Shown here: one piece after another, positions 28,151 through 48,600 of the stretch
How the letters are laid out: every line of letters begins with the position of its first letter
Numbering within the stretch: position 1 is the stretch's first letter
Source of the DNA: a virus
Lineage: Duplodnaviria > Caudoviricetes
Length of the DNA stretch: 64,000 nucleotides
Direction: 5' to 3' (one strand)
IMG/VR virus record: IMGVR_UViG_3300015050_001523
Span: 96,001-160,000 of that record
Position numbers and translations under genes: made by a program
Notes under the pieces: generated by a model
Databases searched by the model: none
Seen by the model: the letters and a program-made list of their open reading frames with translations, nothing else
What the model was told of the DNA's origin: nothing

Positions 28151-28390
28151 TTATCCACAGCACTTAAGGATTGCTTCGGCAACCAGCTTCATTTCGAGCG
28201 GCGTTCCCATGATCCGATTGCCAACCTTTCCATCATCAGTATAGCATCGAACCTCGACAAGATCAATACCATCAGCATCAGGACCGACTTCAATGTATTC
28301 ACCAGACTTATCATTATAAATCCGATAAACGGTTTCGACACTATATTTCTCAAAGGTTTCGACCATTGGAGTTTTCATCAGGGCTTCCAT
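28151..28390 (-). CDS. Cassette ORF, leaderless
   Basis: TATCCT-N6-ATG downstream of the element at 28395..28542. Confidence 0.65.
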   Translation of the reverse strand: MEALMKTPMVETFEKYSVETVYRIYNDKSGEYIEVGPDADGIDLVEVRCYTDDGKVGNRIMGTPLEMKLVAEAILKCCG

Positions 28391-28543
28391 ATACAAAGGA
28401 TACACTGGAAACGGGGTGATGCAAGCGATCTTTGGCGATTTATTTTATGCTGCGCCTTTGGCGCTTTGGCACGGTTTGTGCATGGATTAATTTATTAATT
28501 AATAACAATTGCCTATGCAAAAAAAGGGCCATCGGCCCTTTTA

Positions 28544-28909
28544 TCAATCCGTTTTTTCAATTTCTTTACGTATTTTTTCAATATCCAATATGGAAATTTC
28601 AGAACATCCAGCCCCACAATCAAGAAGCCTTATTTCAAGTTTGTCAATCAAACTTTGAAGAACATTCATTTCGATTCCAAGTGTAGAACATGCGTCCCAT
28701 GTAGTAAGTGTGGAACCCATGTAAACTGCCGATTTTGAAAGGTTCGCAATTCGAGATTTAATTTCTGACAATTTTCCAATAGATGAAAGACCACAAAAAG
28801 TAGCGAAGATTTTAATTTCACGACCAGTCTTTAGATTGTTTTCAATCAAGGCCAAAGAGTCTTGAAAGTTCGACTTCTCAATCATTTCCTTTAGTTCGCG
28901 TGCCTTCAT
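28544..28909 (-). CDS. Hypothetical protein, leaderless
   Basis: TTGCGC-N16-TATCAT-N6-ATG (MKARELKE). Confidence 0.7.
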   Translation of the reverse strand: MKARELKEMIEKSNFQDSLALIENNLKTGREIKIFATFCGLSSIGKLSEIKSRIANLSKSAVYMGSTLTTWDACSTLGIEMNVLQSLIDKLEIRLLDCGAGCSEISILDIEKIRKEIEKTD

Positions 28910-29021
28910 GCTTTTATGATACCATATAACAAATGAAGCGCAACCCATTTAATGGAAATAAAAAAGGGCGCATAATGCGCCCTTTCATTTTTTTATTCTA
29001 TTTTTTGGCGCTTTGGCGCCT

Positions 29022-30098
29022 TTAGCGCTTCTCTACCATTTGAAGCATGCGAGCATGATGCTTCCAACGCTCACCAGGCAGTTGCATGCGATAGTTGCAA
29101 AGATGGACAATGAGCCGCAAGGAAAGCTGGCGCCACTTATTCACGTTTTCGTGAACAAAGTCAAGAATTTCTTGCTGGATTTTGGGGTCAGTGACCCCAT
29201 TTTCCACCATAATCCCAGAATCCTGGCAAACCTGAACAACGCGCAGAAGCCGCCGTCGCTTTGAAAAGAGCCCGAGATTCATGTAACCAGAGCGCGACAG
29301 AAGCGCCTTGACATGCTCGGCCTTTTTGGAGCCAGATTCGCATTCTCGCTGAAAATCGATATTTGTCAGGAACAAAATTCGACCCTGGAAATCAATAGAA
29401 TTTGGGATATCCTCCTTTTGAAGAGTACCAGATTCCTTGAGCCAGCAAATCTTGCGCGCCCTTCCCGGCGGCAAAACTTCAAGCGCTGCCTTCAAGAGAT
29501 TAAGAGTCGTTTCATCTTTGAAAACGCTATCGCAATCATCAAAGCAAAGCACGCCACCTTCAGATGCGCGATGAAGTGCCATGTAGAGATTGATGGGAGA
29601 AATATCCCCCTTAATCAATTCATAGTAAATTCCATCCTCGATTGCCTTTTCGGCATACTTGCCGATACAGTGACTTTTGCCGCAACCGGCAGGGCCGCTG
29701 ATCAGAGTGCTCGGGCGATTGCCCAAAACAACCTGCTCGACACACTCCTCAAAGGTTTCAAATCGACCGGCAATTTCGGTAATAATTTCATCATCCGAAA
29801 GAAGATCGTCAGGATCCTGATAGACAAATTCATTCGCCTCGCGGGGAGTAGCAGGAGCAGATCCAGATCGGGCGAAGCCTGGAGCGAAATCGCCCGAAGC
29901 AACCGCATCAGCCAAGGCGCGCATAGTTTGCGCAAGACGAGGGCTAATAGACTTGCTAGGATCATTGAGAGTCTGAGAGATCGTTGGCTGACTAACACTA
30001 TGTCCAAGCTTGTTAGCCTTGTCAGTCGCGGCCTTCTGCCATCCATGATTAGGATAGCCAAGCGCCTTACAGATCGTCATAAATTCGTCGTGATTCAT
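29022..30098 (-). CDS. AAA+ ATPase with N-terminal HTH-like domain
   Basis: Walker A GPAGCGKS, Walker B LCFDDCD, LFLTN sensor, ALLSR Arg finger; N-terminal VSQPTISQTLN helix. Confidence 0.85.
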   Translation of the reverse strand: MNHDEFMTICKALGYPNHGWQKAATDKANKLGHSVSQPTISQTLNDPSKSISPRLAQTMRALADAVASGDFAPGFARSGSAPATPREANEFVYQDPDDLLSDDEIITEIAGRFETFEECVEQVVLGNRPSTLISGPAGCGKSHCIGKYAEKAIEDGIYYELIKGDISPINLYMALHRASEGGVLCFDDCDSVFKDETTLNLLKAALEVLPPGRARKICWLKESGTLQKEDIPNSIDFQGRILFLTNIDFQRECESGSKKAEHVKALLSRSGYMNLGLFSKRRRLLRVVQVCQDSGIMVENGVTDPKIQQEILDFVHENVNKWRQLSLRLIVHLCNYRMQLPGERWKHHARMLQMVEKR

Positions 30099-30468
30099 TT
30101 TGTCTCGTTTGTTCGGGTTCGGTAAGGTTCCTGTCTCCCCCTCATGATAGCTTGAAGCCGACTTGACGCAAGGAACCTTCGCAACAAATTTCTTTCACCC
30201 TTTGGCATCCTTTATGCATCAATCCAAAATTATTACTAAACAAAATAAATGGTATGCAGCATCCGTGCCAAGCCTTTGCTTGGCGGGACCACTATAAAGG
30301 ATCGGAAGCATCTTTGCCGAAAAGGAAATGATTTCAATGGCTTGCGAGATTTGTCTGAAAAAGAGACCGGCCGAGGTTGCACTTCGAAGGTTATCGTCCA
30401 TACTGTGAGGGTGGTCGGGAAAGAGCCCGCCACGCCCAACCAAACCAAAAAGAAAGAAGATACCAATC

Positions 30469-31092
30469 ATGACCACCGAAACCGTCACCGCTCCCGCTGC
30501 CACCGAAACCGCCACCGCTCCCGCGAAGCCCGCTGGCCGCCCGCGCAAGATCTCCGATAAGGCCCTGGCTCGTGCCGAGCAGCTCTATGACTCTGGCCAG
30601 ACCATCGCGCAGATCTGTAGTCAGCCCTGGTGCAATGTCGGCCCTGCCGCGCTTTACTACCACTTCGCTGGCCGTTCGCCCAAGGGCGATTCTGGCGTCG
30701 AAATGCGACCGCGCGGTCGCAAGGGTCCGAATCCCACGCAGCTCGCGCACCTACTTGCCGAGTTTGAAAAGGGCCGCACCCTGACCGAGATCCGGGAGGA
30801 TGCCGTGCTTTGCTCGCGCGTCAAGGTCAAGAACCCCGCTGAAGGTGAGCCGGCGAGTAAGAAGCATATGTTCTCACTGGCCACGCTCAGCAAGGCCGTG
30901 AAGGATGCGGGATTCACGCCGCGCCGCGGCCGACCGGCGAATCCGGTTGCGGTTGAGGAGGTTGCGGAGGTTGCGGAGGTTGCGGCCGAGCCCGCTGCCG
31001 ACGCTCCGATGGCTGCTGAGCCGGTTGCGGAGGTTGCGGCCGAGCCCATGGCCGAGGCTCCGATGGTCGACGAGGCGAGCGCCGCGGAGTAA
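30469..31092 (+). CDS. DNA-binding protein: AT-hooks, two HTH-like segments, acidic Ala/Glu tail
   Basis: GRPRK, RPRGRKG and RRGRP motifs; GQTIAQIC..GPAALYYHF; GRTLTEIRE..LATLSKAV; EVAEVAEVAAEP repeats. Confidence 0.75.
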   Translation: MTTETVTAPAATETATAPAKPAGRPRKISDKALARAEQLYDSGQTIAQICSQPWCNVGPAALYYHFAGRSPKGDSGVEMRPRGRKGPNPTQLAHLLAEFEKGRTLTEIREDAVLCSRVKVKNPAEGEPASKKHMFSLATLSKAVKDAGFTPRRGRPANPVAVEEVAEVAEVAAEPAADAPMAAEPVAEVAAEPMAEAPMVDEASAAE

Positions 31093-31099
31093 TCCATGA

Positions 31100-31127
31100 A
31101 TGGTGGGAGGGTTTCCCCTCCCACCAT
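31100..31127 (+). terminator. Rho-independent terminator-like hairpin
   Basis: ATGGTGGGAGGG-TTT-CCCCTCCCACCAT after the AT-hook gene. Confidence 0.7.
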
Positions 31128-31147
31128 ATTATTTTAATCTTAATTTA

Positions 31148-31304
31148 AGGTGCGCCAATCGCGCACCTTTTTTTATGGACATCAAAAATTAATTAATTAA
31201 TAACAAGCCTTATGCATGAAAGATGCCAAAGCGCCAAAGGCGCGGCATAAATTAAATCGACCGAAGATGCTTGCATCCTGATTTAGATAAGCTATCTTTA
31301 GGTC
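31148..31304 (+). promoter_or_regulatory. Cassette element driving the tRNA-like RNA pair
   Basis: Full element; TTGCAT-N16-TATCTT places +1 at about 31305. Confidence 0.8.
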
Positions 31305-31419
31305 TGAGGATAGGCGAGATAAAGGAAAGACCAAGGGGCTCTGCCAAGAACCAAGGTCACTATTTCCAGGAACACGCAAGCTGGCAGGCTTTCTCCCGGG
31401 TTCGAATCCTGGATCCTCA
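31305..31419 (+). ncRNA. tRNA-like RNA (acceptor plus T arm, ~80-nt non-canonical interior)
   Basis: TGAGGAT/ATCCTCA stem stacked on CCGGG-TTCGAAT-CCTGG; internal CTGCCA/TGGCAG and GAAAG/CTTTC helices. Confidence 0.65.
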
Positions 31420-31426
31420 TTTTTGA

Positions 31427-31547
31427 CGGTATGAGACGAATAGGAGCACGTCTGCACCAAGCCACCCCGGTGCAAGAGATCTAAAGATCTATGCGAAAGC
31501 TAAGGATTTATTTAGATTTATAGTTGGTTCGAATCCAGCCATATCGA
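31427..31547 (+). ncRNA. Elongated tRNA-like RNA (10-nt anticodon-position loop, long variable arm)
   Basis: CGGTATG/CATATCG acceptor, GACG/CGTC D stem, GCACC-AAGCCACCCC-GGTGC arm, long hairpin capped GCGAAAGC, GTTGG-TTCGAAT-CCAGC T arm. Confidence 0.75.
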
Positions 31548-31590
31548 AATTTTAATTGGACATCAAACCTTCTCATGCTAGGATTTTAAC

Positions 31591-31920
31591 ATGTTCAGGC
31601 AAATGAAAATTGTCGTTGAAGTTTCGCCCGAGCTTGCTGCTGGCATGAGCGAGTCTCAATTGGCGCGACTCGCGCGAGGGATTGATATCTCCTCATGTTA
31701 TCGAGGAATTAGGATTGATGGATTTCAAGATCCTCAAGTTTTTGATTCGCTTGGAAACGCTGTTATGTTCCTTCTAAACACGTCCGCGACCGAGCGAGCC
31801 CTGTCCCTTGCTTGTGGAGGAAAAGCGACTGCTACGGGCTTGTGGAGGCATGACCGAGCCGAATTCTTTAGGCTCGCGGCCGAGGCTCTTTACAATCATC
31901 GAAATCTTTTTTGGCCTTGA
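31591..31920 (+). CDS. Cassette ORF, leaderless
   Basis: TGGACA-N16-TAGGAT-N6-ATG. Confidence 0.6.
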   Translation: MFRQMKIVVEVSPELAAGMSESQLARLARGIDISSCYRGIRIDGFQDPQVFDSLGNAVMFLLNTSATERALSLACGGKATATGLWRHDRAEFFRLAAEALYNHRNLFWP

Positions 31921-31950
31921 CTCCCTCGAAATATAGGCTATAACCAAATC

Positions 31951-32175
31951 ATGAGCACCACGACGATCAAGATCTCTTTCTCTACTGACGGCGCCGCCTT
32001 CGAGGATAACTTTGATGGGGAAATGGCTCTCGTTATCCGACAGATCGCTAACAAGATCCCACGGCTTCAAGCCCGGCGACCAGGGTGCGTATGTTCCTGG
32101 CCCGAGGGCGATGATACCCTATTTGACAGCAATGGCAACACGATCGGCAGCATCGCCTATAAGGAAGCCAAGTAA
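31951..32175 (+). CDS. Small conserved phage protein, leaderless
   Basis: TTGACT-N16-TATAAC-N6-ATG; I.F.TDGAAFED..LFDSNGNTIG pattern. Confidence 0.7.
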   Translation: MSTTTIKISFSTDGAAFEDNFDGEMALVIRQIANKIPRLQARRPGCVCSWPEGDDTLFDSNGNTIGSIAYKEAK

Positions 32176-32531
32176 TGAAAGTTCGCAAACCTAAAACCGA
32201 AGCTGAAGATATGGCAATGTCTGCGCGGGCTCTGGATTTTCTTATTGAAAAAGAAAACAATTGGATTCCTATCGACGCTCCCAAGACACGAATGGATAAA
32301 GTCCATTGTCAGCATATCCATATTGACAATGGCGGAATCTCAATGTCGGTTGAGGATACTGGGAAGAGCATCAATTTTGAAATATCTGCCCAATATTTTG
32401 GATATCCGGCAATTTCGGCTTCTATGAACATTCAGGACCACGCAATCGAATTTGTTTCTGCGCTGAGGAAGCTAGCAGATTCCGTTGAAAAAGACATCGA
32501 AAATATCAATTGGCAGGAACGATACGAATAA
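32175..32531 (+). CDS. Hypothetical protein
   Basis: Stop/start overlap with the previous ORF. Confidence 0.65.
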   Translation: MKVRKPKTEAEDMAMSARALDFLIEKENNWIPIDAPKTRMDKVHCQHIHIDNGGISMSVEDTGKSINFEISAQYFGYPAISASMNIQDHAIEFVSALRKLADSVEKDIENINWQERYE

Positions 32532-32641
32532 AGAAAAGGATGCCATTTGGCATCCTTTTTGCATGGCCAATTTTTATTAATTAATAATTTAACGATATGC
32601 AAAAAAGATGCCAAGCTTGGCATCTTTCAATGTTACCAGAG

Positions 32642-32770
32642 TCAGTCTCGCCTGGATGGCACGGCCGGCCATTGGCAGGCACACTTGGCAGTTCCACAGC
32701 TCGAAGGGATCCAAATGTTCCCGCACCACGGACAGCGCGGGAAGGTCTTGGTCTTGGTCTTGGTTTCCAT
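32642..32770 (-). CDS. 42-aa Cys-rich micro-protein (not in the ORF track), leaderless
   Basis: METKTKTKTFPRCPWCGNIWIPSSCGTAKCACQWPAVPSRRD; TTGCGT-N16-TATGCT-N6-ATG. Confidence 0.65.
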   Translation of the reverse strand: METKTKTKTFPRCPWCGNIWIPSSCGTAKCACQWPAVPSRRD

Positions 32771-32907
32771 AAACTAAGCATAACGTATTCTGGCGAGAAC
32801 GCAACCCAGTTCAGTGATTTATTTTTGGCATTCTTTATGCATGCTTAAAATTTATTAATTAATTAAAAAAGAACATTAAAAGAAAAGGCGCATTATGCGC
32901 CTTTTGG

Positions 32908-33453
32908 TTATCGGGCCGTCATTTCTCCGAGCCAAAGCTTGGCATCCTTACTGTCTCGAAAGATAACAAAGCTGGCATCAATAACAAACCATCCAATATA
33001 ATTTAGATCTTTCATTCGTGGTTCTTCCTTATGGCGCAAGGCTGGCCGATCGTTATGTTGGTCTTCAACCAGCATGACTGCCATATCAAACTTTTCTTCG
33101 GGGCCAACAAACCAACCAAAGCTGCTATCTCCAACTTTGATTTCCTTAAAGGACAGAGCCTTGACAGCATGCAAAGCTCGCATTTCTCGCAAGGCGCTCG
33201 GCAAAGCTCCAAATTCAAACTCGGCCGAGCCCATATAATCGAAAGAGAAGTATTGGTCAACACCTTTACTTTGGCCTACAGAATGCTTCTTCGCACAAAT
33301 CCGCTGTACCAAATAAGTCGCCCGAGAAGGATAATTAATCTTCTCCCAATCAAGGCGCTGCTGACGCTGTGACTTTGTGGACTTTGTTTGCGAATCAGGT
33401 TGCGGCTTGGTCCAAGTGTTCGCAGAATTCATCAGTGACTTTAGGCTGGCCAT
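32908..33453 (-). CDS. Cassette ORF, leaderless
   Basis: TTGCAT-N16-TATCCT-N7-ATG; FSFDYMGSAEFEFGALP motif. Confidence 0.75.
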   Translation of the reverse strand: MASLKSLMNSANTWTKPQPDSQTKSTKSQRQQRLDWEKINYPSRATYLVQRICAKKHSVGQSKGVDQYFSFDYMGSAEFEFGALPSALREMRALHAVKALSFKEIKVGDSSFGWFVGPEEKFDMAVMLVEDQHNDRPALRHKEEPRMKDLNYIGWFVIDASFVIFRDSKDAKLWLGEMTAR

Positions 33454-33457
33454 GATT

Positions 33458-33548
33458 AAAAGGATAGCCTATCCGAATCAGGATGCAAGGCCAAAAATAA
33501 ATTTATTTTGATGTTGCGCGAGCGACCTTTATGGACCATCCTATAATC
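33458..33548. promoter_or_regulatory. Compact divergent promoter pair around palindrome AAAATAAATTTATTTT
   Basis: Palindrome at 33494-33509 with TTGC(A/G) -35 boxes pointing outward. Confidence 0.75.
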
Positions 33549-33953
33549 ATGGAAACCGAAGCCGCCGCTATCACTCTCAAGCCCGAGCCCACCAATAGCA
33601 AAGAAGAGCTTTTGCTGGCAAAGATTCCGATGCCTGACAGCGCCAATCAAAAGGAAGGCACGCGAAATGAATTGGAGATAAAGGTTCGGTATATCAAGGA
33701 TGGAATGGGAAGGCTCGGCGGCCGAGGCTTTTTCCTAACCATTCATGGATATGCGGTTGAAGGTCTATTTAAAACCTTTATGCTTTGTCAGGACCCTTCG
33801 GAGTATATCTTTGTCGAGCCCTGTCAGCGATTTGGCGCAAAGGCCATGAATCAGGCCGCTTCCCGCGCTTGCGGAGAAGAATTTCGCGCTAAGATCGAAA
33901 AAGAGGTTGTCAAGGCACAAAAGTATTATCTTGGAAAGACTTTTCCAATGTAA
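33549..33953 (+). CDS. Cassette ORF, leaderless
   Basis: TTGCGC-N17-CATCCT-N6-ATG. Confidence 0.7.
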   Translation: METEAAAITLKPEPTNSKEELLLAKIPMPDSANQKEGTRNELEIKVRYIKDGMGRLGGRGFFLTIHGYAVEGLFKTFMLCQDPSEYIFVEPCQRFGAKAMNQAASRACGEEFRAKIEKEVVKAQKYYLGKTFPM

Positions 33954-34111
33954 ATCAAAAGGCGCATAAAGCGCCTTTCTTTTTAAATGTTCTTTTTTAT
34001 TAATTAATAACAAGCCTTATGCATTAGCCATGCCAAGCGCCTTTGGCGCGGCATGAAATTAAAGATCGGTTTGAGGTTGCATCTTCGGAAAAATGCTTCA
34101 TGCTAAAAGAG

Positions 34112-34348
34112 ATGAAAGACAAGCCTCTTTATCCAGGAAATGTTTATGACAACCCGATTAAGGGGTATAACACCCTTTATGATGAGGTAAATATTGTGAT
34201 TAGGGAACTTGAGCGCCTTCGCAAGTTTGCTCATGATGATTCTCTCAAAAATGAACATGCACTTCACCGAGAAAATGCTTTAGGCCGAACTTGTGCCTAC
34301 GAAACTGCCAAATCATTGCTTAGTGATATCTTTGTTCGTCTTGAATGA
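34112..34348 (+). CDS. Cassette ORF, leaderless
   Basis: TTGCAT-N16-CATGCT-N7-ATG. Confidence 0.65.
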   Translation: MKDKPLYPGNVYDNPIKGYNTLYDEVNIVIRELERLRKFAHDDSLKNEHALHRENALGRTCAYETAKSLLSDIFVRLE

Positions 34349-34529
34349 AACGATCCACTAAAAAGGCGCATAAAGCGCCTTTCTTTTAAATGTTCTTTTT
34401 TATTAATTAATAAATTAAGCCCATGCAAAAAGGATGCCAATGCGCCAAAGGCGCGGCATGAAATTAAAATCGATTTGGCCTTGCATCTTAGCTGGAATGC
34501 ATTATCATCAGAAGAGGAGCTAAAGAAAA

Positions 34530-34781
34530 ATGTCACGCACTACTCGAACGGTTCCAGGACATATGATTGATCGCGGCAGTTTGACAATTACTCCTGCCAT
34601 GCAAGATTATTTGGTGAAGGTTCAGCGAGGCCAGGCTCGGGCTGTAAGCACCGTTGTTTGCGAGCATGGCTGGCCCGAGCATATTTCCGGTTCAGACCGC
34701 AAGCGAATCAAGCGCTTTGTGGCGAAGGTTCGCCGCCGTCAGGCTCGGCAAGATATCCGAGATTCTTTTATGCTTGGCTGA
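34530..34781 (+). CDS. Cassette ORF, basic
   Basis: Downstream of a full element; GAGGAG SD. Confidence 0.7.
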   Translation: MSRTTRTVPGHMIDRGSLTITPAMQDYLVKVQRGQARAVSTVVCEHGWPEHISGSDRKRIKRFVAKVRRRQARQDIRDSFMLG

Positions 34782-34792
34782 GTCACCGCTAT

Positions 34793-35107
34793 ATGAATAA
34801 TCTCTCCGACCAAACCGCTTGCATCCATCCCAATCTCGCATCGCTTATTGCTGAGGAATTTACCCAATTTGGCTTTGTGCGAGTTAACCTCACAAACGGC
34901 TACGTGATCGAAATCGAACTTTACGATAGCGGTAACACCGCCGTGGTGGTCCGCGCGCCCGTAACGGAGCGATCCCCCTATGGAGGTTGCGATCTTATTT
35001 ACCAAACCAAGACTAAGCCCGCATCGGTTGCGATTGATGCGATGATGGCGCGGATCGTTGAATGGATGCGTCCGAAGACCGAGCCTGCTGACCTTGCACC
35101 ATTCTGA
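34793..35107 (+). CDS. Cassette ORF
   Basis: Second gene of the cassette. Confidence 0.6.
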   Translation: MNNLSDQTACIHPNLASLIAEEFTQFGFVRVNLTNGYVIEIELYDSGNTAVVVRAPVTERSPYGGCDLIYQTKTKPASVAIDAMMARIVEWMRPKTEPADLAPF

Positions 35108-35220
35108 GAATCGAGGATGCCAGATTAAATCTGGCATCCTTTTTGCATTCTGGTTTAATTATTAATTAATAACTTTCTTTAAAATAAAAAGAGCGCAATA
35201 AATGCTGCGCTCTTTTTCCA

Positions 35221-35490
35221 TTAATAAAGTGTAAAGTTTTGGGCTGGACTTGGGCTTAGTCCGTTTAAAACGCATGCTCCAATTGCAGCAACCAAAGTAG
35301 AGGCATTATTCGTATTAAATTCGTATCCAACATATCGCTTTCCTTTGTGCATCCTGGTTTTATCCGAGCCTCCCCAAATGCAAAGTTTGTTCAAGTCTGT
35401 GCGAAGCTCGGGAGCCGAATCTTCACAAACAAAGATCCGATGTCCATAATAGGTTCCGCCAAGAACGACCACAAACTTTGGATTCTCCAT
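35221..35490 (-). CDS. Cassette ORF, leaderless
   Basis: TTGCTT-N16-TAGACT-N6-ATG. Confidence 0.65.
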   Translation of the reverse strand: MENPKFVVVLGGTYYGHRIFVCEDSAPELRTDLNKLCIWGGSDKTRMHKGKRYVGYEFNTNNASTLVAAIGACVLNGLSPSPAQNFTLY

Positions 35491-35568
35491 ATATAGAGTC
35501 TAATTCATGCTGAGCCAAAAGCAAGAAAGAAATCCTAAAAAAAAAGGCGCCTAAAGCGCCTTTCCTCG

Positions 35569-35766
35569 TTATTGAAGGTTAGCTAGAAATTTAGAGATCC
35601 TTTCACGAACCCATGGGTTTTCTGGGTCGTGCTCAATCGAGCCGCTTGCGGAGCTTTGGAAGGTGCTCGTGATTGCAAGAGGCGAGCCATAATGGCCCGT
35701 GCATCCGCGAAACATGCGAGCATCAATAACATCTGCCATGGTCATTTGAATAGAATTATTATTCAT
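35569..35766 (-). CDS. Cassette ORF
   Basis: Ends at terminator hairpin GGCGCCTAAAGCGCC. Confidence 0.55.
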   Translation of the reverse strand: MNNNSIQMTMADVIDARMFRGCTGHYGSPLAITSTFQSSASGSIEHDPENPWVRERISKFLANLQ

Positions 35767-35772
35767 GATCTA

Positions 35773-36003
35773 TCATCCTTGCCAATTGCGCGGACGTGGA
35801 ACCGGCGGATCGTGCGGGTGTGGCTGGGCTTGAATAACAACCACTTCTGGCAAGAACCAGGACAAGTGTCCCGATGCCATGTTATAGCCAGCCAACCTTC
35901 CGCGCTCGTCGTAACGTGTTAGTCGCTTGTGTTTGGCACCGCTCCAAAACATATCTCCGTCTACAAGCTCGGACAGTGGAACTTTGATTGGGTCAGTCAC
36001 CAT
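35773..36003 (-). CDS. Cassette ORF
   Basis: Downstream of a minus-oriented element. Confidence 0.6.
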   Translation of the reverse strand: MVTDPIKVPLSELVDGDMFWSGAKHKRLTRYDERGRLAGYNMASGHLSWFLPEVVVIQAQPHPHDPPVPRPRNWQG

Positions 36004-36137
36004 CTAATAATGCCAGAAGAAAGACAGGATGCAAGCAGACTTAATGATTTATTTTTTGCCGTGCCAAGGCACGGCTCATGCATGATGCTTGTTATTAATT
36101 AAGATTTTAATGCTAAATGCGCCAAAGGCGCTTCTTT

Positions 36138-36323
36138 TCAGTCGGACTTGCGCTTTGTGTCGGCCGCAATTTGAATCGCTCGTGCCGCAGCCGTAATTGC
36201 TGACAAGACGGCCGGCAACTGAGTAACTGCGAGAAAGCTCAGATCGCTGGCGAGCTTGCCGTATTTGCGAGCAGCATCCGCGATCTCCTTTTGAGTTTCG
36301 TTGTTGAGTATTGGATCAGCCAT
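36138..36323 (-). CDS. Cassette ORF, leaderless
   Basis: TTGCAT-N16-CATTAT-N6-ATG. Confidence 0.65.
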   Translation of the reverse strand: MADPILNNETQKEIADAARKYGKLASDLSFLAVTQLPAVLSAITAAARAIQIAADTKRKSD

Positions 36324-39160: not shown

Positions 39161-39163
39161 GAT

Positions 39164-40087: not shown

Positions 40088-40126
40088 TTTGGTTTCTTTC
40101 TGGCGGGAGAAGTTCTCCGCTGCCGA

Positions 40127-40315: not shown

Positions 40316-40711
40316 ATGGCACTAACCAAAGCTGTCGCTGGTCTTGCTCGCGTGATGGGTCTCCAATCCTCGCGCTTGGCGCTCCCAAACGAAAAGGGAG
40401 ACGCAGAAGTTGCGCGATGCAAGAAATGCGCGAGCTACATTCTGAGCGAGAATCGCCATGACTTTGTGACTTGTTTTTGTGGCGCAGTTTCGATTGATGG
40501 TGGCCGAGACTACACGCGAATTACTGGAAATGACGAGGATTATGAACTTTTGTCGGTTGTGTTCGGATACGATACGGAGGAACAACTAAAACAAAAAATC
40601 CTAATTCTTTCCGCGCGATTAATGCCAAAAATTAATACAGAATTATATGGGCTCTTGCTCGAATTGATGCAAGCCGAAATTGAGCTAGATCGGGTTCGCG
40701 CTAGGCACTAA
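40316..40711 (+). CDS. Zn-binding phage protein (CxxC..RHDFVTCxCG..DGG family), leaderless
   Basis: RCKKC..SENRHDFVTCFCGAVSIDGGRDYTR. Confidence 0.75.
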   Translation: MALTKAVAGLARVMGLQSSRLALPNEKGDAEVARCKKCASYILSENRHDFVTCFCGAVSIDGGRDYTRITGNDEDYELLSVVFGYDTEEQLKQKILILSARLMPKINTELYGLLLELMQAEIELDRVRARH

Positions 40712-40896
40712 ACAAACCAAACATTCCTTAAGAGCGCCTTGTGCGCCCTTTTCTTCTTGAGTTATTAATTAATAACAATTATCATGCATTAAGGATGCCA
40801 AGGCGCCTTTGGCGCGGCATAAAATAAATCGACCGAAGGCTTGCATCTTCTCTAGACTCTGATAAGATAAACCTGACTCCAAAAAGGAACCCAACC

Positions 40897-41043
40897 ATGC
40901 AAAAGTTCATCATCGCCTCCATCATCGCTTTTTCTCTCTTTCTTTCTGGTTGCGATCTCGCCGAGCAGGGTTACACTTGCGACGACGCTGGTCAGCTTAT
41001 CGAGCCGACCGGAAAGCCGACCGGCCTGCCCTGTCCTTTCTGA
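40897..41043 (+). CDS. 48-aa lipoprotein (not in the ORF track)
   Basis: MQKFIIASIIAFSLFLSGCDLAEQGYTCDDAGQLIEPTGKPTGLPCPF; AAGGA SD; sole payload of its cassette. Confidence 0.75.
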   Translation: MQKFIIASIIAFSLFLSGCDLAEQGYTCDDAGQLIEPTGKPTGLPCPF

Positions 41044-41221
41044 GAGGAAAGACACAACTTTGGAAAAGGGCGCTTTATGCGCCCTTTGTTTTTTAAAGTT
41101 TTCGACTTATTAATTAATAAAACTTATTATGCATGAAGGATGCCAAGCGCCAAAGGCGCGGCATAAAATAAATCGTCAAAGATGGGTTGCGTCTTATGTA
41201 AATCCACACTAATATGAAGTC

Positions 41222-41536
41222 ATGTCCAGTCCATTTCTTGTCGATGTCAAGCGGTATCTCCTCCATTTGATTGCAACTGACATTGTTACTGGATTACCAT
41301 TTGGAGGTGGTTTTCCGAAATCGCTAATGATGCAACTGCTTCCGTGGTCAAACTTGCAAGCTGATTTCATTGAAGCAATGCGCGGCAAAACTTGCGGCGT
41401 GGGAGAGGCTACTGATACAGACCCCGATGGTGAATGTGTGTACTACATGGATAATGTCGTCGACTGGCTCCAAAGCGACGAAACCGAACAAGTCTCTCCC
41501 TATGTTAAAAGCCTCTCAAAACTCAAGGACATGTAA
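41222..41536 (+). CDS. Cassette ORF, leaderless
   Basis: TTGCGT-N17-TAATAT-N6-ATG. Confidence 0.7.
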   Translation: MSSPFLVDVKRYLLHLIATDIVTGLPFGGGFPKSLMMQLLPWSNLQADFIEAMRGKTCGVGEATDTDPDGECVYYMDNVVDWLQSDETEQVSPYVKSLSKLKDM

Positions 41537-41712
41537 AAAATCCAGCCGCATCTAAAGGGGCATAAAGCCCCTTTTTTCTTTAAGTTTCCTAAATTATTAA
41601 TTAATAAAAATCCTTCATGCATAGTCCATGCCAAAGCGCCAAAGGCGCTTCATAAAATAAATCGTCAATGCGGCTTGCATAACTCTTTGATTGGTTTATG
41701 CTTCGGATTGCA

Positions 41713-42057
41713 ATGCTTCTCACTTTCGAAGAAAAGCTCATCGGGATTTCTCTCATGCAAGCGGGATGCTCGGCTTCCTCGGCTTCCGTTCAAATGAATG
41801 CATATTCAGGAGGCCAGTACACACTGGAAAAGATGCGCGATCTTTTCAAGTCCTTGGAAGAGGCCAAGAAAACTCACAAGGCGATTGGCGGCGTATTGAT
41901 CGAACTTCAAAACCCAGAAGCCACGGTAGAAGATCGCGTGTTTTTTCTGTATTCCATGGACAATCGAAGCGTGCAAGTAACAAAAGCGTTTCTGAACACC
42001 TGCTTGCCAGAATGGGCGATCCAGCTCGAAAAGATCATGGATTCGTGGGATTTCTAA
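41713..42057 (+). CDS. Cassette ORF
   Basis: TTGCAT-N16-TATGCT-N10-ATG. Confidence 0.7.
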   Translation: MLLTFEEKLIGISLMQAGCSASSASVQMNAYSGGQYTLEKMRDLFKSLEEAKKTHKAIGGVLIELQNPEATVEDRVFFLYSMDNRSVQVTKAFLNTCLPEWAIQLEKIMDSWDF

Positions 42058-42234
42058 CAAGTCACACGTTCAAAAAGGGCGCACAAAGCGCCCTTTTTCT
42101 TTTTTAAGTTCCTGAGTTTATTAATTAATAAAGCTTATTATTCATGAATCGTGCCAAAGCGCCAAAGGCGCATGATAAAATAAATCGTCAAAGATGGCTT
42201 GCGCCCCTCGCCAATCCAAGCTAAGGTTAATCCG

Positions 42235-42678
42235 ATGGCAAATTTCAAAACCCTCCTCGCTGCTTCCCTCGTTCGCAATTCGCGCAAGGAACAGGCCCAG
42301 GAATGGCAGCAATCCATCGCGCTTGCCGCGCAAAGCGAAGATAACTTCGAGCGCGAGGTTGAAGTCCGAACCCGTGCGATTTGTGAGCATGATTTCTGCG
42401 CGAGTTTCACCAGCCTCGTGGAAAGCGAGGTTCACAGCGCGCTTCTCGCGCAGGTCAAGGAACTTTCGATTTGCGCGGCATGCGCAGAGTATGAAAGTCG
42501 GCATTGTTCGGATTGTCGCGGATATGGCTTCACTTCATGGGAGAATCGTTCGACTCGGGCCATGCTTGCCGATCCGCATACTGTGAACAAAATCGATGAA
42601 TCCATCCGAGCCGAGCTTGAAAGCCGCTTGGGAAAAGGAGCTTGGGAGGATATGATGGAATGCATGAATGATGCATAA
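42235..42678 (+). CDS. Cassette ORF with CxxC motifs, leaderless
   Basis: TTGCGC-N17-TAAGGT-N7-ATG; CAAC..CSDCRG. Confidence 0.7.
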   Translation: MANFKTLLAASLVRNSRKEQAQEWQQSIALAAQSEDNFEREVEVRTRAICEHDFCASFTSLVESEVHSALLAQVKELSICAACAEYESRHCSDCRGYGFTSWENRSTRAMLADPHTVNKIDESIRAELESRLGKGAWEDMMECMNDA

Positions 42679-42851
42679 CAAATCAAACATTCCCAAGGGC
42701 GCATAAGGCGCCCTTTTTCTTTTTAGACTTCCAATTTATTAATTAATAAATTTGAATATGCATGAAGGATGCCAAGGCGCCAAAGGCGCGGCATAAATAA
42801 AAAATAAATCGTTGCTTGACTTCGGCCGAGACTCGATTAGAATGATCTTCG

Positions 42852-43043
42852 ATGGAAACCGTCCGCTTCACCTTCACCGCTACCGCCATCGGCTCGACTC
42901 ACGAGATCACGATTGTCGTTCCGATTGAAGATGATCCAGAGCTTGCTTACTCGGAACTTGCGGACAACGCGCAAGAGCAAGCTGAGCAGATCGCGCGCGA
43001 GCGACTCGGAGTCGAGGATGTCGAGGTTCTGCTGCGCAGCTAG
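42852..43043 (+). CDS. Small acidic cassette ORF
   Basis: TTGACT-N16-TAGAAT-N8-ATG. Confidence 0.7.
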   Translation: METVRFTFTATAIGSTHEITIVVPIEDDPELAYSELADNAQEQAEQIARERLGVEDVEVLLRS

Positions 43044-43222
43044 CGCCGCTCTCTTCGGATCCTTAAGGGCGCTTGAAGCGCCCTTTTCTTTTTAAGTTTC
43101 CTGAGCTATTAATTAATAAAGTTTACTATGCATAAAGGATGCCAAAGCGCCAAAGGCGCGGCATAAAATAAATCGACCGAGGTTGCTTGCATCTTCTCAA
43201 TCATGATTTATAGTTCCTTTGC

Positions 43223-43579
43223 ATGGCGACCCAAATGGTTCCGACCCTCTCGATCTTCTCTATGCCTGAGAACGTCTATTGGCAGGCGAACGAATTGCGC
43301 AATTCGGACAATCCGCATCGATACTCTGCGTGCAATTATTTCACGCATGGTAGCGTATACTTCCAAAAAGGCCATTGGCTGAGCGAAGACATGTGGATCG
43401 TCGAAATCGATGGCGAGGAGATCGCTACCTTTAAGCTTCGATTCTTGACCGAGGCGGTTGCTTTTATGTCGGTCCAAGTCGACAAGGATGGTGATCGTGA
43501 TGCGATGGTGAATGCTATGCAAAGCACGCAAAGTGACTATGAGGAGGATTGGGATTATGAAGAGGAGTTTCGTGAATAA
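43223..43579 (+). CDS. Acidic cassette ORF
   Basis: TTGCAT-N16-TATAGT-N8-ATG. Confidence 0.7.
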   Translation: MATQMVPTLSIFSMPENVYWQANELRNSDNPHRYSACNYFTHGSVYFQKGHWLSEDMWIVEIDGEEIATFKLRFLTEAVAFMSVQVDKDGDRDAMVNAMQSTQSDYEEDWDYEEEFRE

Positions 43580-44024
43580 ACAGGATAAAATCAAACATTC
43601 CTTAAGGGCGCTTTGTGCGCCCTTTTTGCTTTAAGTTTCCTAAATTATTAATTAATAACCCCTAGCCATACACCTTCTATGCCAACGTCTTTATTTTGTT
43701 GCACATTATTCGCAGCATAAGCTGGCTTCCTAGAAGCTTCCAGAAGGCGGCGAGGACTCGGCCGGTACCCTCGCCGCCCGACAGGCCGAAAACGGCTCAG
43801 CAAGGCGCATAACAATGTTTCCTTTGATGCTAGCATCTGGCCGGCGCTGCCCAAAAACGGAGGAGAAGATCGAACCCTAGCCTCCACCCCCCTCCAAAAA
43901 ATGGCCCAAATCTTGCTTAAATTCTGGGCGTTAATTAATTAAAATTCTCTATGCAAAAAATGGACCAAAGTTAAATAAAAAAGGGCGCTTTATGCGCCCT
44001 AACAAAATGAAAGCTTTGGGAGGA

Positions 44025-44408
44025 TTAAATGAAATAATCGCTTTCGTACCAAAGATCATGGTCAAAGGTATCAAAACCCATAACCTCGTTGAAGGCGTGA
44101 GCGCCTCCTATCATTCCTGCATGAACTGCCATTTCATCCAAGCATGCACGCTCGAATTGCGCAGCTTCATGCGCCTTTTGCGCATTCATTTGCGCAATTT
44201 CTGCGTCAGTTTTGACGCGGCGAGAAACTCCCAAATCTGGGATCTCAAGCCAAGCTGTCCAAACCAACATTTTATTTAGAGGTTTTGAATCGTGAGGATT
44301 GTGAAAAAACTCCAAAGCCTCAGCTTCCGTTTCGAACGAAACGCTAGAATGACAATCATCGTTACCATTGGCAGGATTGGAACCCCAGAAAAAAACTTCG
44401 ATAGCCAT
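44025..44408 (-). CDS. Cassette ORF
   Basis: TTGCCT-N17-TATAAA-N8-ATG; ends at a terminator hairpin. Confidence 0.7.
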   Translation of the reverse strand: MAIEVFFWGSNPANGNDDCHSSVSFETEAEALEFFHNPHDSKPLNKMLVWTAWLEIPDLGVSRRVKTDAEIAQMNAQKAHEAAQFERACLDEMAVHAGMIGGAHAFNEVMGFDTFDHDLWYESDYFI

Positions 44409-44620
44409 CGCACAAATTTATAGCAAAGGACATGCTCCAAGGCAAGCCAACTTAAAGATTTATTTTTTGGCATCATTTATGCATGAGCCAAATTTATTAA
44501 TTAATGAATTTCTCGATGCAAAAAATAGGCCGAAACATTAAAATAAAAAGGGCGCATAAAGCGCCCTTCAAAAGCTATTAATAAAAAATGGCGCGGATCT
44601 TGCAACCCGCGCCATTGGCG

Positions 44621-45586
44621 CTAACCGAGCACCGCTTCGATTTTCTCGACCGCGAACTTCACGCGATCGTTACCCTTCGCGTCGAAATGATTGCGCTCGT
44701 CGGACAAAACCCACAAAACATAATCAACCATCGATTTGTTAGCATGGATCTTCGAGGGATGCGGGATTCGCGCGATGTCGGCGCGAAGGTCGCGCATCAA
44801 CCGATTGAGCCGATCAAACGCGGTCTCGGCGCGCTCGGGATCCGGCGCAGCCTGGCCATCATGCGCACGGAGCGCTTCATCGGTCACGTTGAGGATCTCG
44901 CGGTAAATGCGCCCAAGCATGCCGGGGTTGTTGCAGTGGCGGTGATCGCGCCCTTCGGTCCAAGTGCCAAGGCGCCCAACGCGCTTCACAGTGTGACCCT
45001 TGCGCTGGTCGCGCGTCTTCGAGCTGACGCCGGGAGCGCAGATCCGAATCTGATCCGAGCCGAGCGGCCGAACGGCGCCGCCAACGCGCTTGCCGTTGGC
45101 GCTCTTGCCGCCAACAATCGAAGTGAAGACCGAGACCACGATCGGCATGCCGCGCGAGTCGCGCCCAACCTCACGAACCCAGATCTCCTCACCGGGAGTC
45201 AGCGGAGATCCCGCGGTCTCGCTGGCGAACGCGAACCCCGCAATGAGCAGAACATCGCGGATCGCGCCAGCGAGCATTTCGCGCGATTGCGTGCTATGCG
45301 GATCGTACTTGGTTTCCGCGGTGTACGCGGTATGCGGGGTTTGCGCCCACGTCTGCGACTCTCGCGCAGCATCGGCCGCGGCTTGCGCAGCCGCACGCAA
45401 ATCTTGCTCCGGGTTCTCAGCGCGCAGTTCCCGCGAAGCTTGCGCGAGGAGCGCATCGTAATCCAGACCATGCTCGGCGCAGATCTTGCACGCGTTAAGT
45501 CGCGCGTTAAGCGCTTCGGTCGAGCTAGTCGCGGGATGCGCAACGATCTTAAGGAGCTTTACCACTTTGGAGGAGAAGTTCGACAT
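44621..45586 (-). CDS. DUF2786-like N-terminal domain protein (321 aa, GC-rich)
   Basis: KVVKLLKIVAHPATSSTEALNARLNACKICAEHGLD resembles the DUF2786 KxxKLL..EAxxA..A..LMAKYGI helix pair. Confidence 0.6.
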   Translation of the reverse strand: MSNFSSKVVKLLKIVAHPATSSTEALNARLNACKICAEHGLDYDALLAQASRELRAENPEQDLRAAAQAAADAARESQTWAQTPHTAYTAETKYDPHSTQSREMLAGAIRDVLLIAGFAFASETAGSPLTPGEEIWVREVGRDSRGMPIVVSVFTSIVGGKSANGKRVGGAVRPLGSDQIRICAPGVSSKTRDQRKGHTVKRVGRLGTWTEGRDHRHCNNPGMLGRIYREILNVTDEALRAHDGQAAPDPERAETAFDRLNRLMRDLRADIARIPHPSKIHANKSMVDYVLWVLSDERNHFDAKGNDRVKFAVEKIEAVLG

Positions 45587-45649
45587 GGTAGCTTTGTCGC
45601 TTTCGGCACCGGTCAGCGGCGCATCGGGAAAAAATCAGGATCGATTTGA

Positions 45650-48600
45650 TTATGGTCCGAGATCAAGATTAAGCAAGCGATACGCAAAGAAAAAAATCCA
45701 CCTAATTAAATCAATCACTTACACTTGGCACCAATCTTGCCGATCAGAATTCCTAACATAAGCGATTTTTTAACTTTCTTTTAACTAATATTCCTATGGA
45801 TCGAATCTTGCAAAGGATCTTCCTTGGATCAGATCTTGCATAAAAAGCACGTTATTAATTAATAGCTCAGGCATATGCATAAAAGATGCCAGCGCAAGGT
45901 TTGCGCTCCAAAGCAAGCCAAAATCATTGAACATTTAAGGCATAGGGCTGGGACGTCGTATAAGGCTCATGGCGAGGCGATCGCCAAAACAAGGGAGAGG
46001 TTAGGGGTCACCCTTAAAAACCCGTCTCCGTCAATCCTCGCGCGTCGAGCCTAGAACCGCTGCTAGTCGCCGATCCAAGCCCGAAACCGCCAAAATCCCT
46101 TAAATCCGCAAGCCGCGCACAAGAAAAGATAAGGAAAGGTGAGCAAACCTCATGAAATGTAATTAAAGGTAAAGAGATGGAATCAATCATAAACAAACCT
46201 CCCACCATGTAAGTAAAGGTCATGACGTCTGGGATAATGTCATGACATATAAGTGAATTGGATCAAAGATAATAAAATATAACCAAACATAATGAAAGGT
46301 AGGCAAACATCGGGAAAGGTAATAAGAGGTAGCCTAAGATAATCCAAGGAAATGAAAGGTAGGCAAATGTCATGAGACTTGGGGAAACCTAAGAGAAGTA
46401 AACACGCGCCGCATAACCTATACAAAAAACTTATATTGAAGGGAAATAAAATCAAATATCCCTCATGTATGACACCATCCCAGCTTGTAAACCGTTGCAG
46501 CATTTACTGTAACAGCATTCATTGATTCAATAAACACTGAAACATCTTAACCGTCTCACTCGCAACCGTTACAGTAAACGCTGTCACAGTGTTCGCTGAA
46601 ACACTAATCAATGTCTCAATAAAAATGTTTCAGTAAACAATGACATAATAACATAACTAACCCTTATCCCATCCTTGCCTACATATAAGCTTTCCTCATG
46701 ACATTTCCTTACCCCTTTTTGTGAACTAGCTTACATATCGTTTCATGCGTTGCAACATCACTTGAAACACTCCGCGCATGATTCGCAAACATCGTTCCAG
46801 CATGGCTAAACATCATGCTAGACCCCCATATCCCTCAGGTTTGGCGTGAAACATGGGGGCAATGGTCCTATCGCCCCCCATCCTATCGCCTCGCAGAATC
46901 CATCCTGGCGCGCGACAGCCTATGAAGGTTTCTTGCCTACATATAAACTTTCCATAAACTAACTCTCCCATAATAAATCTAACCTTCCTATAACCAACTA
47001 TTTCCTAACTCTATACAAATTATATGCCATCAAATTCCTAACTTTCCTTAACCCTTTCATAATTCCTTCTATATCTTCCGTTCCTTCCTCTCCTATTACC
47101 ATTTAAAGCTAATAATAATCAGATAACCCATTTCCCTTATGGATCAATGGCCCAATTACCATTTCAAACATTCCTGCCATATCTAATATGTTTGTTTTGC
47201 TATATTTGGCCAAATAACTGCTTAAACTATTATAAATAGTAAAGCTTACTTTACTATCTCCTTAGTTTTTCAAAATATTGAATATTAATTATATCATTAT
47301 TTTTTGAATTGTTGGGATTGTCTAAAACGATAGCTATGTTCGATTAGGGAGCTTTTTGACATATTAGCCGCTATAAATAACGATCAGTTTCTTGCATATT
47401 TCATGCCAGTTAAAAGGCTACCATTCCTCAAAAACCTATTATGCCGAATCATTCATATTTAATGATCCTAACTCCACGAATTCAAACATTTCGCATTAAT
47501 TAATAACCCCTTATTTCATTATTTCCAGAATATCAAAGAAAGCTAGCAAAACAAAAGGATGGAAAAAGCTAACAAAAGCGATATTTCCAAGAAAGCTAAA
47601 ATGCCGAATCATTCATATTTAATGATCCTAGCTATTCGAATTCGAAGTTTTGATAGTTATGTTTGGATTGGTAGAAATATAAGGAAAGTTAGAAATGGGA
47701 GTTATTAATTAAGAAGGTAAAGGCATGCACAAGGCATGCCAACCACAAAAGTTAGGAATGATAGATTAGGAAGGAAAGTTAGGAAGGAAAGTTAGGAATG
47801 AGAGAAAGAGGAGGAGAACCCAGCCAAATCAAACCTCCTATTCCTACCTAACCTTATATCTCTTATGCTAGATATATGGGATATGTCTGGGTTGATAGGT
47901 TATGCTCGCCCATCCTTAATTAACAATCCTTCTCTATGCAATCCCTATGCCATGTCTCCATGTTCGATATGTTAGCTTTGTTCCAAAAGCTCTTAATTAA
48001 CAAATCCGATTCATGCAACCCTTATGCCAATAGCTTTGATACTAATGTTAGGAATGGGAGCCTTATATCCCTTCAGCTTTGTTAGGTTATGCTTTGGCAT
48101 GAAGTATGCAAGATGTTAGGTTTGGTAGGCTAACATTGTTCTAAATTTAGTTATAGGAATGGATGCTATGTTGGGATTGTTAGGATTGATAGGTAAATTT
48201 TAAATAGCTTTGGCAGCTTTGATGCTTTCGCGCCAAGGCCGCCATGTTCGGTTTGTTATTAATGTTTGATATGGGAGGATTGGGTATATTAGTTTTCTTC
48301 GATATGTTAGCTTCGCCGGGTTTGCGCTCGGGCCGCATAGCTCCTATTCCTCCCGGTAGGATACCCGCCTACATCACCCCCCTTTAGACCCCCCCTGTTT
48401 ACCCCCCCTTACACCCCCCTACCATGCGTCACTAATCGCCCCCTTATGGACCTGCTCTAAGAGCCCTCGCAAAAATTTTCTAAATTTTTAACATTTTTAA
48501 ATGATTACATTTTTCCGAAAATGTAATCAAAAAATATTTGATATATGGGTCGAAAAAATTTTTGGGGAAAATTTTTGAAAATTAGGAATTTATAGATGTT
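45650..48600. other. ~3-kb non-coding repeat-rich region (candidate terminus, terminal-repeat junction or origin)
   Basis: No credible ORF; repeated AAAGGTAGGCAAA, GGAAAGTTAGGAA, TTGCCTACATATAA, a 30-bp direct repeat at 47441/47601, degenerate TTAATTAA..ATGCA..ATGCCA sites, alternating purine/pyrimidine skew. Confidence 0.75.
48377..48419 (-). other. Four-tract G-quadruplex motif (C6-N6-C7-N6-C7-N5-C6 on plus)
   Basis: C-runs at 48377-82, 48389-95, 48402-08 and 48414-19. Confidence 0.7.

Follow-up and report, generated by a model that had tools for sequence, protein, structure and literature searches.

A 64,000-nucleotide stretch of an uncultured virus genome (bases 96001-160000 of one 322,518-bp IMG/VR record, IMGVR_UViG_3300015050_001523; hereafter the window, to which all positions refer unless the genome is named) carries about 30 small genes that are unrelated to one another and organised as cassettes, each cassette having a promoter and a terminator of its own and being bordered by copies of one composite junction element. 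Our results suggest, on the balance of probability, that this is a recombination-shuffled cassette array of the promoter-early stem-loop (PeSL) type, in whose junction a sigma-54-type promoter is locked to an AT palindrome. PeSLs, which combine a terminator stem-loop with an early promoter, lie in the hyperplastic regions of T4-like phages and flank ORFans that differ between close relatives; their copies recombine, deleting or swapping the flanked ORFans (PMC4122927, PMC2839356). A sequence-only reading of the window had already proposed the PeSL parallel, and its T4-like phage, the presence of stem-loop and promoter in the junction and the signature of the shuffling that it predicted all stand, whereas the extra modules that it saw in the element turn out to contain the sigma-54-type box.

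CheckV puts the completeness of the record at 93%. Judged from its sequence, the source is a distant T4-like jumbo phage; it encodes homologues of rIIA (60058-62361) and RecA/UvsX, and ARAGORN calls eight tRNA genes, to which Rfam adds a 102-nt tRNA match within the array. The genome has a GC content of ~32%, and its sole GC-rich stretch is genome 125-145 kb (44-49% GC), the island occupying 28-46 kb of the window at 44-52% GC. We ruled out that this island is an assembly chimera, since independent assemblies carry the same layout with both flanks.

The palindrome TTATTAATTAATAA, with at most one mismatch, occurs 25 times in the window, compared to 0.14 expected from shuffles, and with element-like flanks it is confined genome-wide to genome 116-144 kb (window 20.2-47.7 kb). 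We then built an nhmmer profile of the junction from 11 forward copies and searched it across 322 kb. It recovered 18 full-length copies (28-107 bits), starting at 28389, 31188, 32768, 33994, 34397, 35999, 36320, 37819, 38342, 40123, 40225, 40759, 41104, 41591, 42116, 42733, 43103 and 44432, together with ~9 partial copies consisting of the palindrome and ATGCA only, and no match outside the island in the rest of the 322-kb genome; degenerate copies occur as far out as 20.2 kb (left) and 47.7 kb (right). The parts follow one another as terminator hairpin, palindrome, ATGCAT-N5-ATGCCA, bulged hairpin (ATGCC..GCGCC-AAA/TTT-GGCGC..GCAT), A-tract AAAATAAATCG and CTTGCAT-N16-TAnnnT. The earlier estimate of about 23 copies was therefore fair, the list of parts and their order had been given correctly, and the convergent (32574, 35159) and divergent (40227) junctions are as described, that is, tail-to-tail and head-to-head. 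Pattern scans for the junction gave nothing in IMG/VR and nothing in the GTDB genomes, and a scan of metagenomes gave mostly chance matches, the exception being a relative of the phage (L003/L013).

Each cassette consists of a ~105-nt head, a unique payload and a ~65-nt tail, and neighbours share a single palindrome, so that exactly one palindrome is present per junction, whether tail-head, tail-tail or head-head. The head contains a GC hairpin, an A-tract resembling an upstream promoter (UP) element and the sigma-70-like promoter TTGCAT-N16-TAnnnT. The tail, a module conserved across cassettes, comprises a short box in the 3' untranslated region, a hairpin of the GGGCGC type and a T-rich spacer whose final TTAAGTTTCCT lies ~22 nt ahead of the palindrome, and its terminator is a two-way intrinsic terminator. 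The payload, which is of mixed base composition, is made up of one to three unrelated open reading frames (ORFs) or RNAs. The cassette promoters (TTGCATCTT...TATCNT) are a class of their own: TTGACA-type matches number 36 in the genome and none in the array. Note that outside the window, at genome 203554-203763 (-), a 300-amino-acid ORF gives a strong Sigma70_r2 match (69 bits); this phage-encoded sigma-70-family factor might read the TTGCAT-type promoters.

Some smaller features of the heads and tails were also observed. The inner head hairpin (28400-44600) is either GCGCC-AAA-GGCGC or GCGCC-TTT-GGCGC and never has a mixed loop, and the terminator loops of cassettes that share an orientation are likewise either ATAAA or TTTAT; such flip-flop forms are as expected if small palindromes invert. 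In several cassettes (33520-33540, 36940-37040, 35999-36010, 36320-36330) the start codon lies 1-6 nt after a TATAAT-like or CATTAT hexamer, and such cassettes may be leaderless, while in others the ribosome-binding site GGAG is clear. A palindromic A-tract, AAAATAAATTTATTTT, is common to two divergent pairs, which lack the palindrome and the box.

Read on the opposite strand, ATGCAT-N5-ATGCCA becomes TGGCAT-N5-ATGCAT, which has the GG-N10-GC spacing and most of the sigma-54 -24/-12 consensus. The sequence-only reading had left this part, the ATGC repeated 11 bp apart, as an anonymous protein site, and we correct it to an opposite-strand sigma-54-type -24/-12 box. The motif TGGCAY-N5-WTGCW occurs 22 times in the window (0.47 expected), and 22 of its 23 matches genome-wide lie inside the array zone. 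Moreover, 22 of 24 palindromes have a box at a distance of 8-10 nt and aimed at them, and nearly every junction has at least one side with a box pointing at the palindrome. Since sigma-54 transcription usually starts ~12 nt downstream of the -12 GC, the predicted +1 of the box falls at the start of the palindrome.

The boxes are of two types. In the head-type box, TGGCAT comes from the hairpin ATGCC-GCGCC-N3-GGCGC-GGCAT, of which it is the 3' half, and the box is directed away from its own TTGCAT promoter, into the terminator of the preceding cassette. In the tail-type box, TGGCATCC is the descending stem of the gene's terminator and TTTTTGCAT serves as T-run and as -12 element at once. A hairpin followed by four or more T lies ahead of at least 14 of 21 boxes, within ~50 nt; such boxes would give a ~55-nt RNA, or an antisense RNA upon read-through. 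Three or four boxes face genes. One (30203-30219, +) lies in sense 249 nt upstream of a gene for a protein with helix-turn-helix (HTH) units and an AT-hook, another (45875-45891, -) lies in sense ~290 nt upstream of the 321-amino-acid gene 44621-45586, and a third (40202-40218, +) faces a DUF7695 gene.

The box before the HTH gene is also present in three distant relatives, whose contigs measure 351 kb (L083), 356 kb (L082) and 18 kb (L085) and whose homologues of the adjoining ATPase are 45-52% identical to that of the source phage. In all four phages it occupies the intergenic region between these two divergent genes, at 104-118 nt from that of the ATPase and 174-277 nt upstream of that of the HTH protein. 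Since the position is kept while the HTH proteins are only 33-34% identical to that of the source phage, we argue that the box is functional. The full TGGCAC-N5-TTGCA consensus occurs in L083, in L085 and in a closer relative, L078. The boxes of L083 and L085 are nearer the consensus (the full TGGCAC-N5-TTGCAT in L083), with an AT-rich TAATTAA-type motif 8-10 nt after them, and one box unit of L085 has a terminator directly after it.

An array in which so many boxes face terminators could also be a sink: 25 or more high-affinity sites per genome, multiplied by replication, would titrate the host sigma-54 polymerase and silence sigma-54-dependent host responses, and most boxes would point into terminators because no product is needed. 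The orientation of at least 14 of the 21 boxes, their restriction to one region and the lack of an encoded activator all suit this explanation. However, a decoy would work without a palindrome fixed at +1 and without a site at each cassette border, and the sense boxes kept before the HTH gene in four phages resemble working promoters. We therefore consider the sink improbable.

Next, we compared the array with that of the closer relative. L078 (with L074) was reached from the scan matches L003/L013 via exact-protein look-ups, and 30 kb of its 62,960-nt contig were used; the sequence comes from an aquifer and is present in two Joint Genome Institute (JGI) samples and one Logan run as independent assemblies. 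Its flank and anchor proteins are mostly 51-70% identical to those of the source phage, both array flanks are syntenic, and its array (~11 kb, ~46% GC) lies between the same anchors, namely the ATPase and HTH genes on one side and genes for 127 and 321 amino acids on the other. This array has 17 box-plus-palindrome junctions of the form TGGCA(C/T)-N5-TTGCA(T/A), N9, TTATT(A/T)ATTAATAA.

The content between the anchors differs. Only 3 of the ~27 ORFs between the source anchors are common to L078; ~10 of its ~15 array genes have no homologue in the source genome, and two have their only homologues outside the source array, at 11.3 and 22.7 kb. The seven genes common to both phages keep their order, and three of the L078 genes, the HTH gene and the homologues of 38424-38702 and 42846-43040, are singly inverted relative to the flanks. 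Thus, the signature of the shuffling that had been predicted from the window is seen when order and orientation are compared, as cassettes replaced and individually inverted. Heads are uniform within the source phage and different from those of L078, which argues for homogenisation by recombination; those at 36.0 and 36.3 kb are near-identical from the -35 hexamer to the start codon, and the ORFs behind them are unrelated. Recombination at the junction repeats would give all three patterns: cassettes exchanged while the anchors stay fixed, cassettes turned around in place, and heads made uniform within one genome. Note that a search for related loci with the ATPase, as a single sequence and as an alignment, found none in IMG/VR.

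These comparisons also bear on a purely regulatory explanation, in which the junction would be conserved simply because it packs several expression signals closely together (terminator, insulator, UP element, promoter and a promoter of a second class), and the rearrangements would be ordinary illegitimate or homologous events that the element does not promote. Every part indeed has an ordinary transcriptional reading, no recombinase is encoded, and in L083 and L085, which have no cassette array, the boxes serve as simple sense promoters for genes that all run in one direction. We nevertheless regard this explanation as unlikely: single-cassette inversions with the order kept and wholesale replacement between anchors fit recombination at palindromic repeats, the heads are far more uniform within the source phage than between phages, and identical heads are joined to unrelated ORFs.

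The sequence-only reading had seen no recombinase in the window, and this now extends to the whole 93%-complete genome for three families, as no tyrosine (PF00589), serine (PF00239) or Y1-HUH recombinase was found. The two conserved proteins of the left anchor were then analysed. The ATPase (29022-30098, -), present in all relatives examined, matches phrog_1250 and the T4-type NrdC.10 in 1306 T4-like phage records, and a set of its homologues is 52-66% identical to it. It has an extra N-terminal domain of ~70 amino acids, with four helices, an HTH-like fold and a disordered linker, and the T4-like matches start at residue ~56-101 (mostly 101) and run to the C-terminus. Its model (pLDDT, predicted local distance difference test, 91) matches generic AAA+ folds only. 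The HTH/AT-hook gene (30469-31092, +; conserved, 66% GC) encodes two three-helix HTH_7-like units with a GRP arm before each, then the invariant RRGRPAN AT-hook, the third of the GRP-type arms, and an acidic tail. With these HTH units, GRP arms, AT-hook and tail, the protein is a plausible candidate for binding the AT palindrome.

A dedicated site-specific cassette system, integron- or shufflon-like but with an unfamiliar catalyst, with the palindrome as crossover core and perhaps the double-HTH/AT-hook protein and the adjoining AAA+ ATPase as its machinery, would account for the single palindrome at each junction type, since a symmetric core would permit both inversion and excision; the HTH protein always adjoins the ATPase, and its Hin-type arms and AT-hook suit AT-rich DNA. 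We find this explanation more doubtful than the sink. No catalytic recombinase or transposase domain was found in the genome, and the HTH_7 protein has DNA-binding units only and no catalytic domain. Its Foldseek matches (paired domain, Mos1, Tc3) were not significant, and the ATPase, whose fold is matched by generic AAA+ proteins only, is of the common T4 NrdC.10 type that also occurs in phages without such an array.

The ATPase was also considered as a phage enhancer-binding protein and rejected: a PDB sequence search and Foldseek gave generic AAA+ proteins (MoxR/NorQ, RuvB, Rubisco activase; template modelling scores 0.42-0.58), and since it has no specific Sigma54_activat (PF00158) match it does not qualify as a canonical activator. 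The PF00158 matches in the genome are confined to a double-AAA ORF at genome 74-75 kb (22-28 bits), and the same model also matches all 14 control genomes; a host protein may act as the activator. MotA/AsiA-type middle promoters were set aside because neither family was found in the genome, a weak negative as the controls were silent too.

The coincidence of promoter and AT-rich DNA raises a further possibility, that the box and the palindrome form a persistent RNA-DNA hybrid that would prime replication or provoke breaks, so that cassette borders would be recombination hot spots. In T4, oriF and oriG reportedly consist of a promoter followed by an AT-rich unwinding element, as worked out in the Kreuzer laboratory. 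In 22 of 24 junctions of the array the predicted +1 coincides with the start of the palindrome, and an ORF-poor, iteron-like region at 45.9-48.6 kb carries further sigma-54-type boxes followed by TTAATTAA motifs. However, 14 bp are short for an unwinding element and a terminator close behind favours release of the transcript; we give such R-loops the least credence among the alternatives considered here. The ORF-poor region itself (45900-48600, ~2.7 kb) lies directly right of the array, holds iteron-like short repeats with units such as AAAGGTAGGCAAA and AAAGTTAGGAAGG and C-rich repeats near 48380, and is partly kept at 1.5-4.8 kb of L078. This region may be a replication origin or a control region.

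Several points weigh against the PeSL-type reading with its sigma-54 junction. The published stem-loop lies directly before the promoter, and in the array ~85 nt of modules intervene, comprising the AT palindrome, the opposite-strand sigma-54-type box, the GC hairpin and the A-tract. The cassette-by-cassette comparison involves one close relative, and the contigs from its three DNA runs end at repeats, leaving no usable joints for structural variants. Sigma-54 normally requires a dedicated activator, and neither sigma-54 (rpoN) nor a canonical enhancer-binding protein was found in the genome; the sigma-54 reading presupposes rpoN in the host. In the source phage the -12 element is mostly ATGCA and not TTGCA. 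Furthermore, TGGCAT is also half of a hairpin stem, so conservation of the box could be partly structural. The case for sigma-54 is one of motif statistics and conservation. To our knowledge sigma-54 has not been described as a phage tool, and in the library that we searched no paper on sigma-54 promoter arrays in phages was found.

With these points in mind, we propose that the array is the hyperplastic accessory-gene region of a jumbo T4-like phage, made of autonomous cassettes. The conserved heads, tails and palindromic junctions would provide portable homology for the general (UvsX-type) recombination of the phage, by which cassettes would be swapped, lost or flipped in place, as proposed for PeSLs; no dedicated site-specific recombinase would then be needed. 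The boxes would bind the host sigma-54 RNA polymerase. A gene-facing box (HTH/AT-hook, 321-amino-acid and DUF7695 genes) would be the promoter of that gene, and a terminator-facing box would make its short or antisense transcript or hold a parked polymerase as an insulator.

A bolder proposal, which we put forward tentatively and regard as unlikely, is that the junction represents a new kind of phage element, in which a dock for the host sigma-54 polymerase, a meltable AT palindrome and a terminator together mark each border between cassettes. Whether parked or firing, the polymerase would either make a lesion or R-loop that lets cassettes flip and change places in the absence of a recombinase, perhaps with the help of the HTH/AT-hook protein, or drain the host of sigma-54. 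If this were true, in either case a T4-like lineage would use sigma-54 without a canonical activator, for which the library searched offered no published precedent. PeSLs are among the few routes proposed for the gain and shuffling of accessory genes in large lytic phages, and the array would be a much cleaner and denser example, with defined heads and tails and direct comparative evidence for single-cassette replacement and inversion. A sigma-54-type box at nearly every border was not expected. Sigma-54-type sites that recur in a lineage would open the testable question of how phages engage or disable sigma-54, and the head and tail modules could steer searches for accessory and anti-defence genes in metagenomic phages.

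The genes carried by the cassettes were also analysed. The 34 cassette ORFs showed no paralogy among themselves or to the rest of the genome, so the 'small unrelated genes' of the sequence-only reading hold, and their GC content spans 0.36 to 0.66. Pfam, PHROGs and PADLOC, applied to ~35 cassette ORFs, returned DUF7695, HTH_7 and AAA matches only, nearly all of the ORFs being ORFans. A 3.7-kb contig from JGI sample 3300059473 carries small genes in mixed orientations, one of which encodes a protein with 81% identity to that of cassette ORF 32908-33453; it probably derives from a closer relative of the source phage.

On the left, two outlying box-plus-palindrome units (20234-20273 and 24975-25014) lie among lower-GC genes. 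The first junction (28389-28531) contains the head of the minus-strand cassette 28151-28390, with a sigma-54-type box at 28467-28483 (+) and the palindrome at 28492-28505, and, at 28515-28531 (-), the tail-type box and terminator of cassette 28544-28948. Beyond the left anchor genes, a full plus-strand head (31188-31310) shows the palindrome at 31190, a box at 31212-31228 (-), the hairpin, the A-tract and the TTGCAT promoter. The region behind it (31300-31560, +) has no ORF; its GGTTCGAATCC motifs resemble T-arms, and it appears to consist of several tRNA-like RNAs, which this head would transcribe before three plus-strand ORFs (31591-32531). A convergent tail-tail junction follows (32534-32625), in which boxes at 32548-32564 (+) and 32597-32613 (-) face the palindrome 32574-32587 and form the 3' halves of two terminator hairpins.

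The next head (32768-32905, -) belongs to the minus-strand unit 32600-32770, with a box at 32826-32842 (+), the palindrome at 32852 and then the terminator of 32908-33453. Two full plus-strand heads come after it, 33994-34111 (palindrome 33997, box 34019-34035, -) and 34397-34519 (palindrome 34400, box 34423-34439, -), and then a convergent junction (35113-35215) composed of a tail-type box and terminator at 35132-35148 (+), the palindrome 35159-35172 and the plain terminator of 35221-35490 (-). The two minus-strand heads at 35999-36105 and 36320-36440 have boxes at 36067-36083 (+) and 36400-36416 (+) and palindromes at 36092 and 36425, respectively. Two more full plus-strand heads, at 37819-37942 (palindrome 37822, box 37844-37860, -) and 38342-38465 (palindrome 38344, box 38367-38383, -), drive the lipoprotein-like 37936-38199, common to the relative, and 38460-38705, which is inverted in the relative.

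A tail-tail junction (38956-39059) contains a terminator, the palindrome 38999-39012 and a tail-type box at 39022-39038 (-), which doubles as the terminator of the Rfam tRNA at 39059-39160 (-). This 102-nt tRNA (56 bits) has an apparent ~30-nt insertion and was not called by ARAGORN. Between it and the divergent junction, a 78-nt unit is repeated 3.3 times with 98% identity (39406-39662), and no ORF accounts for it. The divergent head-head junction (40123-40318) has its box in the left head and the palindrome at 40227-40240, and its right head, which lacks a box, drives the DUF7695 gene 40316-40711. Six tandem plus-strand cassettes follow (40759-43225; head starts 40759, 41104, 41591, 42116, 42733 and 43103), each ending in a tail module; their palindromes are at 40762, 41107, 41594, 42118, 42736 and 43106, and the box at 42118 lacks the -12 GC. 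A further tail module with a palindrome at 43645 (43604-43658) has only a degenerate box on its right side. At 44432-44532 lies the head of the minus-strand gene 44025-44408, with a box at 44468-44484 (+), the palindrome at 44494 and a degenerate tail-type box. The right anchor (44025-45586, -), formed by this gene and 44621-45586 (62% GC), is collinear with L078 5125-6599. The last junction (45795-45891) has two weaker GG-N10-GC boxes (+), the palindrome at 45852-45865 and the gene-facing box already described.

Finally, we compared the array with known systems. Integron arrays likewise consist of unrelated small genes of mixed composition and a repeated, partly palindromic separator, and their content varies between relatives. 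Unlike them, the phage has no IntI or other tyrosine recombinase, the junction is unrelated to attC, and the cassettes, which lie in both orientations, each carry a promoter and a terminator, whereas in integrons a single Pc serves cassettes that have no promoter. Shufflons and invertase switches differ in that the genome has neither a PF00239 nor a PF00589 match. On its sequence, the array is thus a member of neither class. The T4 origins oriF and oriG share with it the T4-like phage and a promoter directly ahead of an AT-rich stretch that melts readily. They differ in that the array promoter is of the sigma-54 type and not MotA-dependent, that the AT stretch is 14 bp and followed by a terminator, and that there are ~25 copies.

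Compared to bacterial sigma-54 promoters, the boxes have the same GG-N10-GC spacing and the sequence TGGCA(C/T)-N5-(T/A)TGCA, with the full consensus in relatives, and one of them lies in a divergent intergenic region beside an AAA+ gene with an HTH, an arrangement seen in bacteria at pspF-pspA and rtcR-rtcBA. In contrast to these promoters, they occur in dozens of copies in a phage without a canonical enhancer-binding protein, whose ATPase could not accommodate a GAFTGA loop; most are directed into a terminator or lie antisense to an adjacent gene, and an AT palindrome is fixed at +1.

The closest parallel is provided by the PeSL and PmSL elements of RB49/phi1, T4/PST and KVP40/nt-1. The array departs from them in having cassettes in both orientations, with convergent and divergent junctions, in its single-cassette inversions between relatives, and in its copies being packed in one 17-kb island of foreign base composition and not scattered. 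As with PeSLs, it lies in a hypervariable region of a T4-like myovirus, with the flanks kept and the content differing, the ORFans that its element flanks differ between relatives, and a dedicated recombinase is absent. Its element also contains a terminator stem-loop and a sigma-70-like promoter, which in the array are set apart by the ~85 nt of other conserved modules. The nt-1/KVP40 type of PeSL has the form A3-4G3-loop-C3T3-4 with TTGYVH-N17-TAWWAT (PMC4122927), and the stem of the array (A-run, G3CGC, loop, GCGC3, T-run) and its -35 element TTGCAT fit this consensus.

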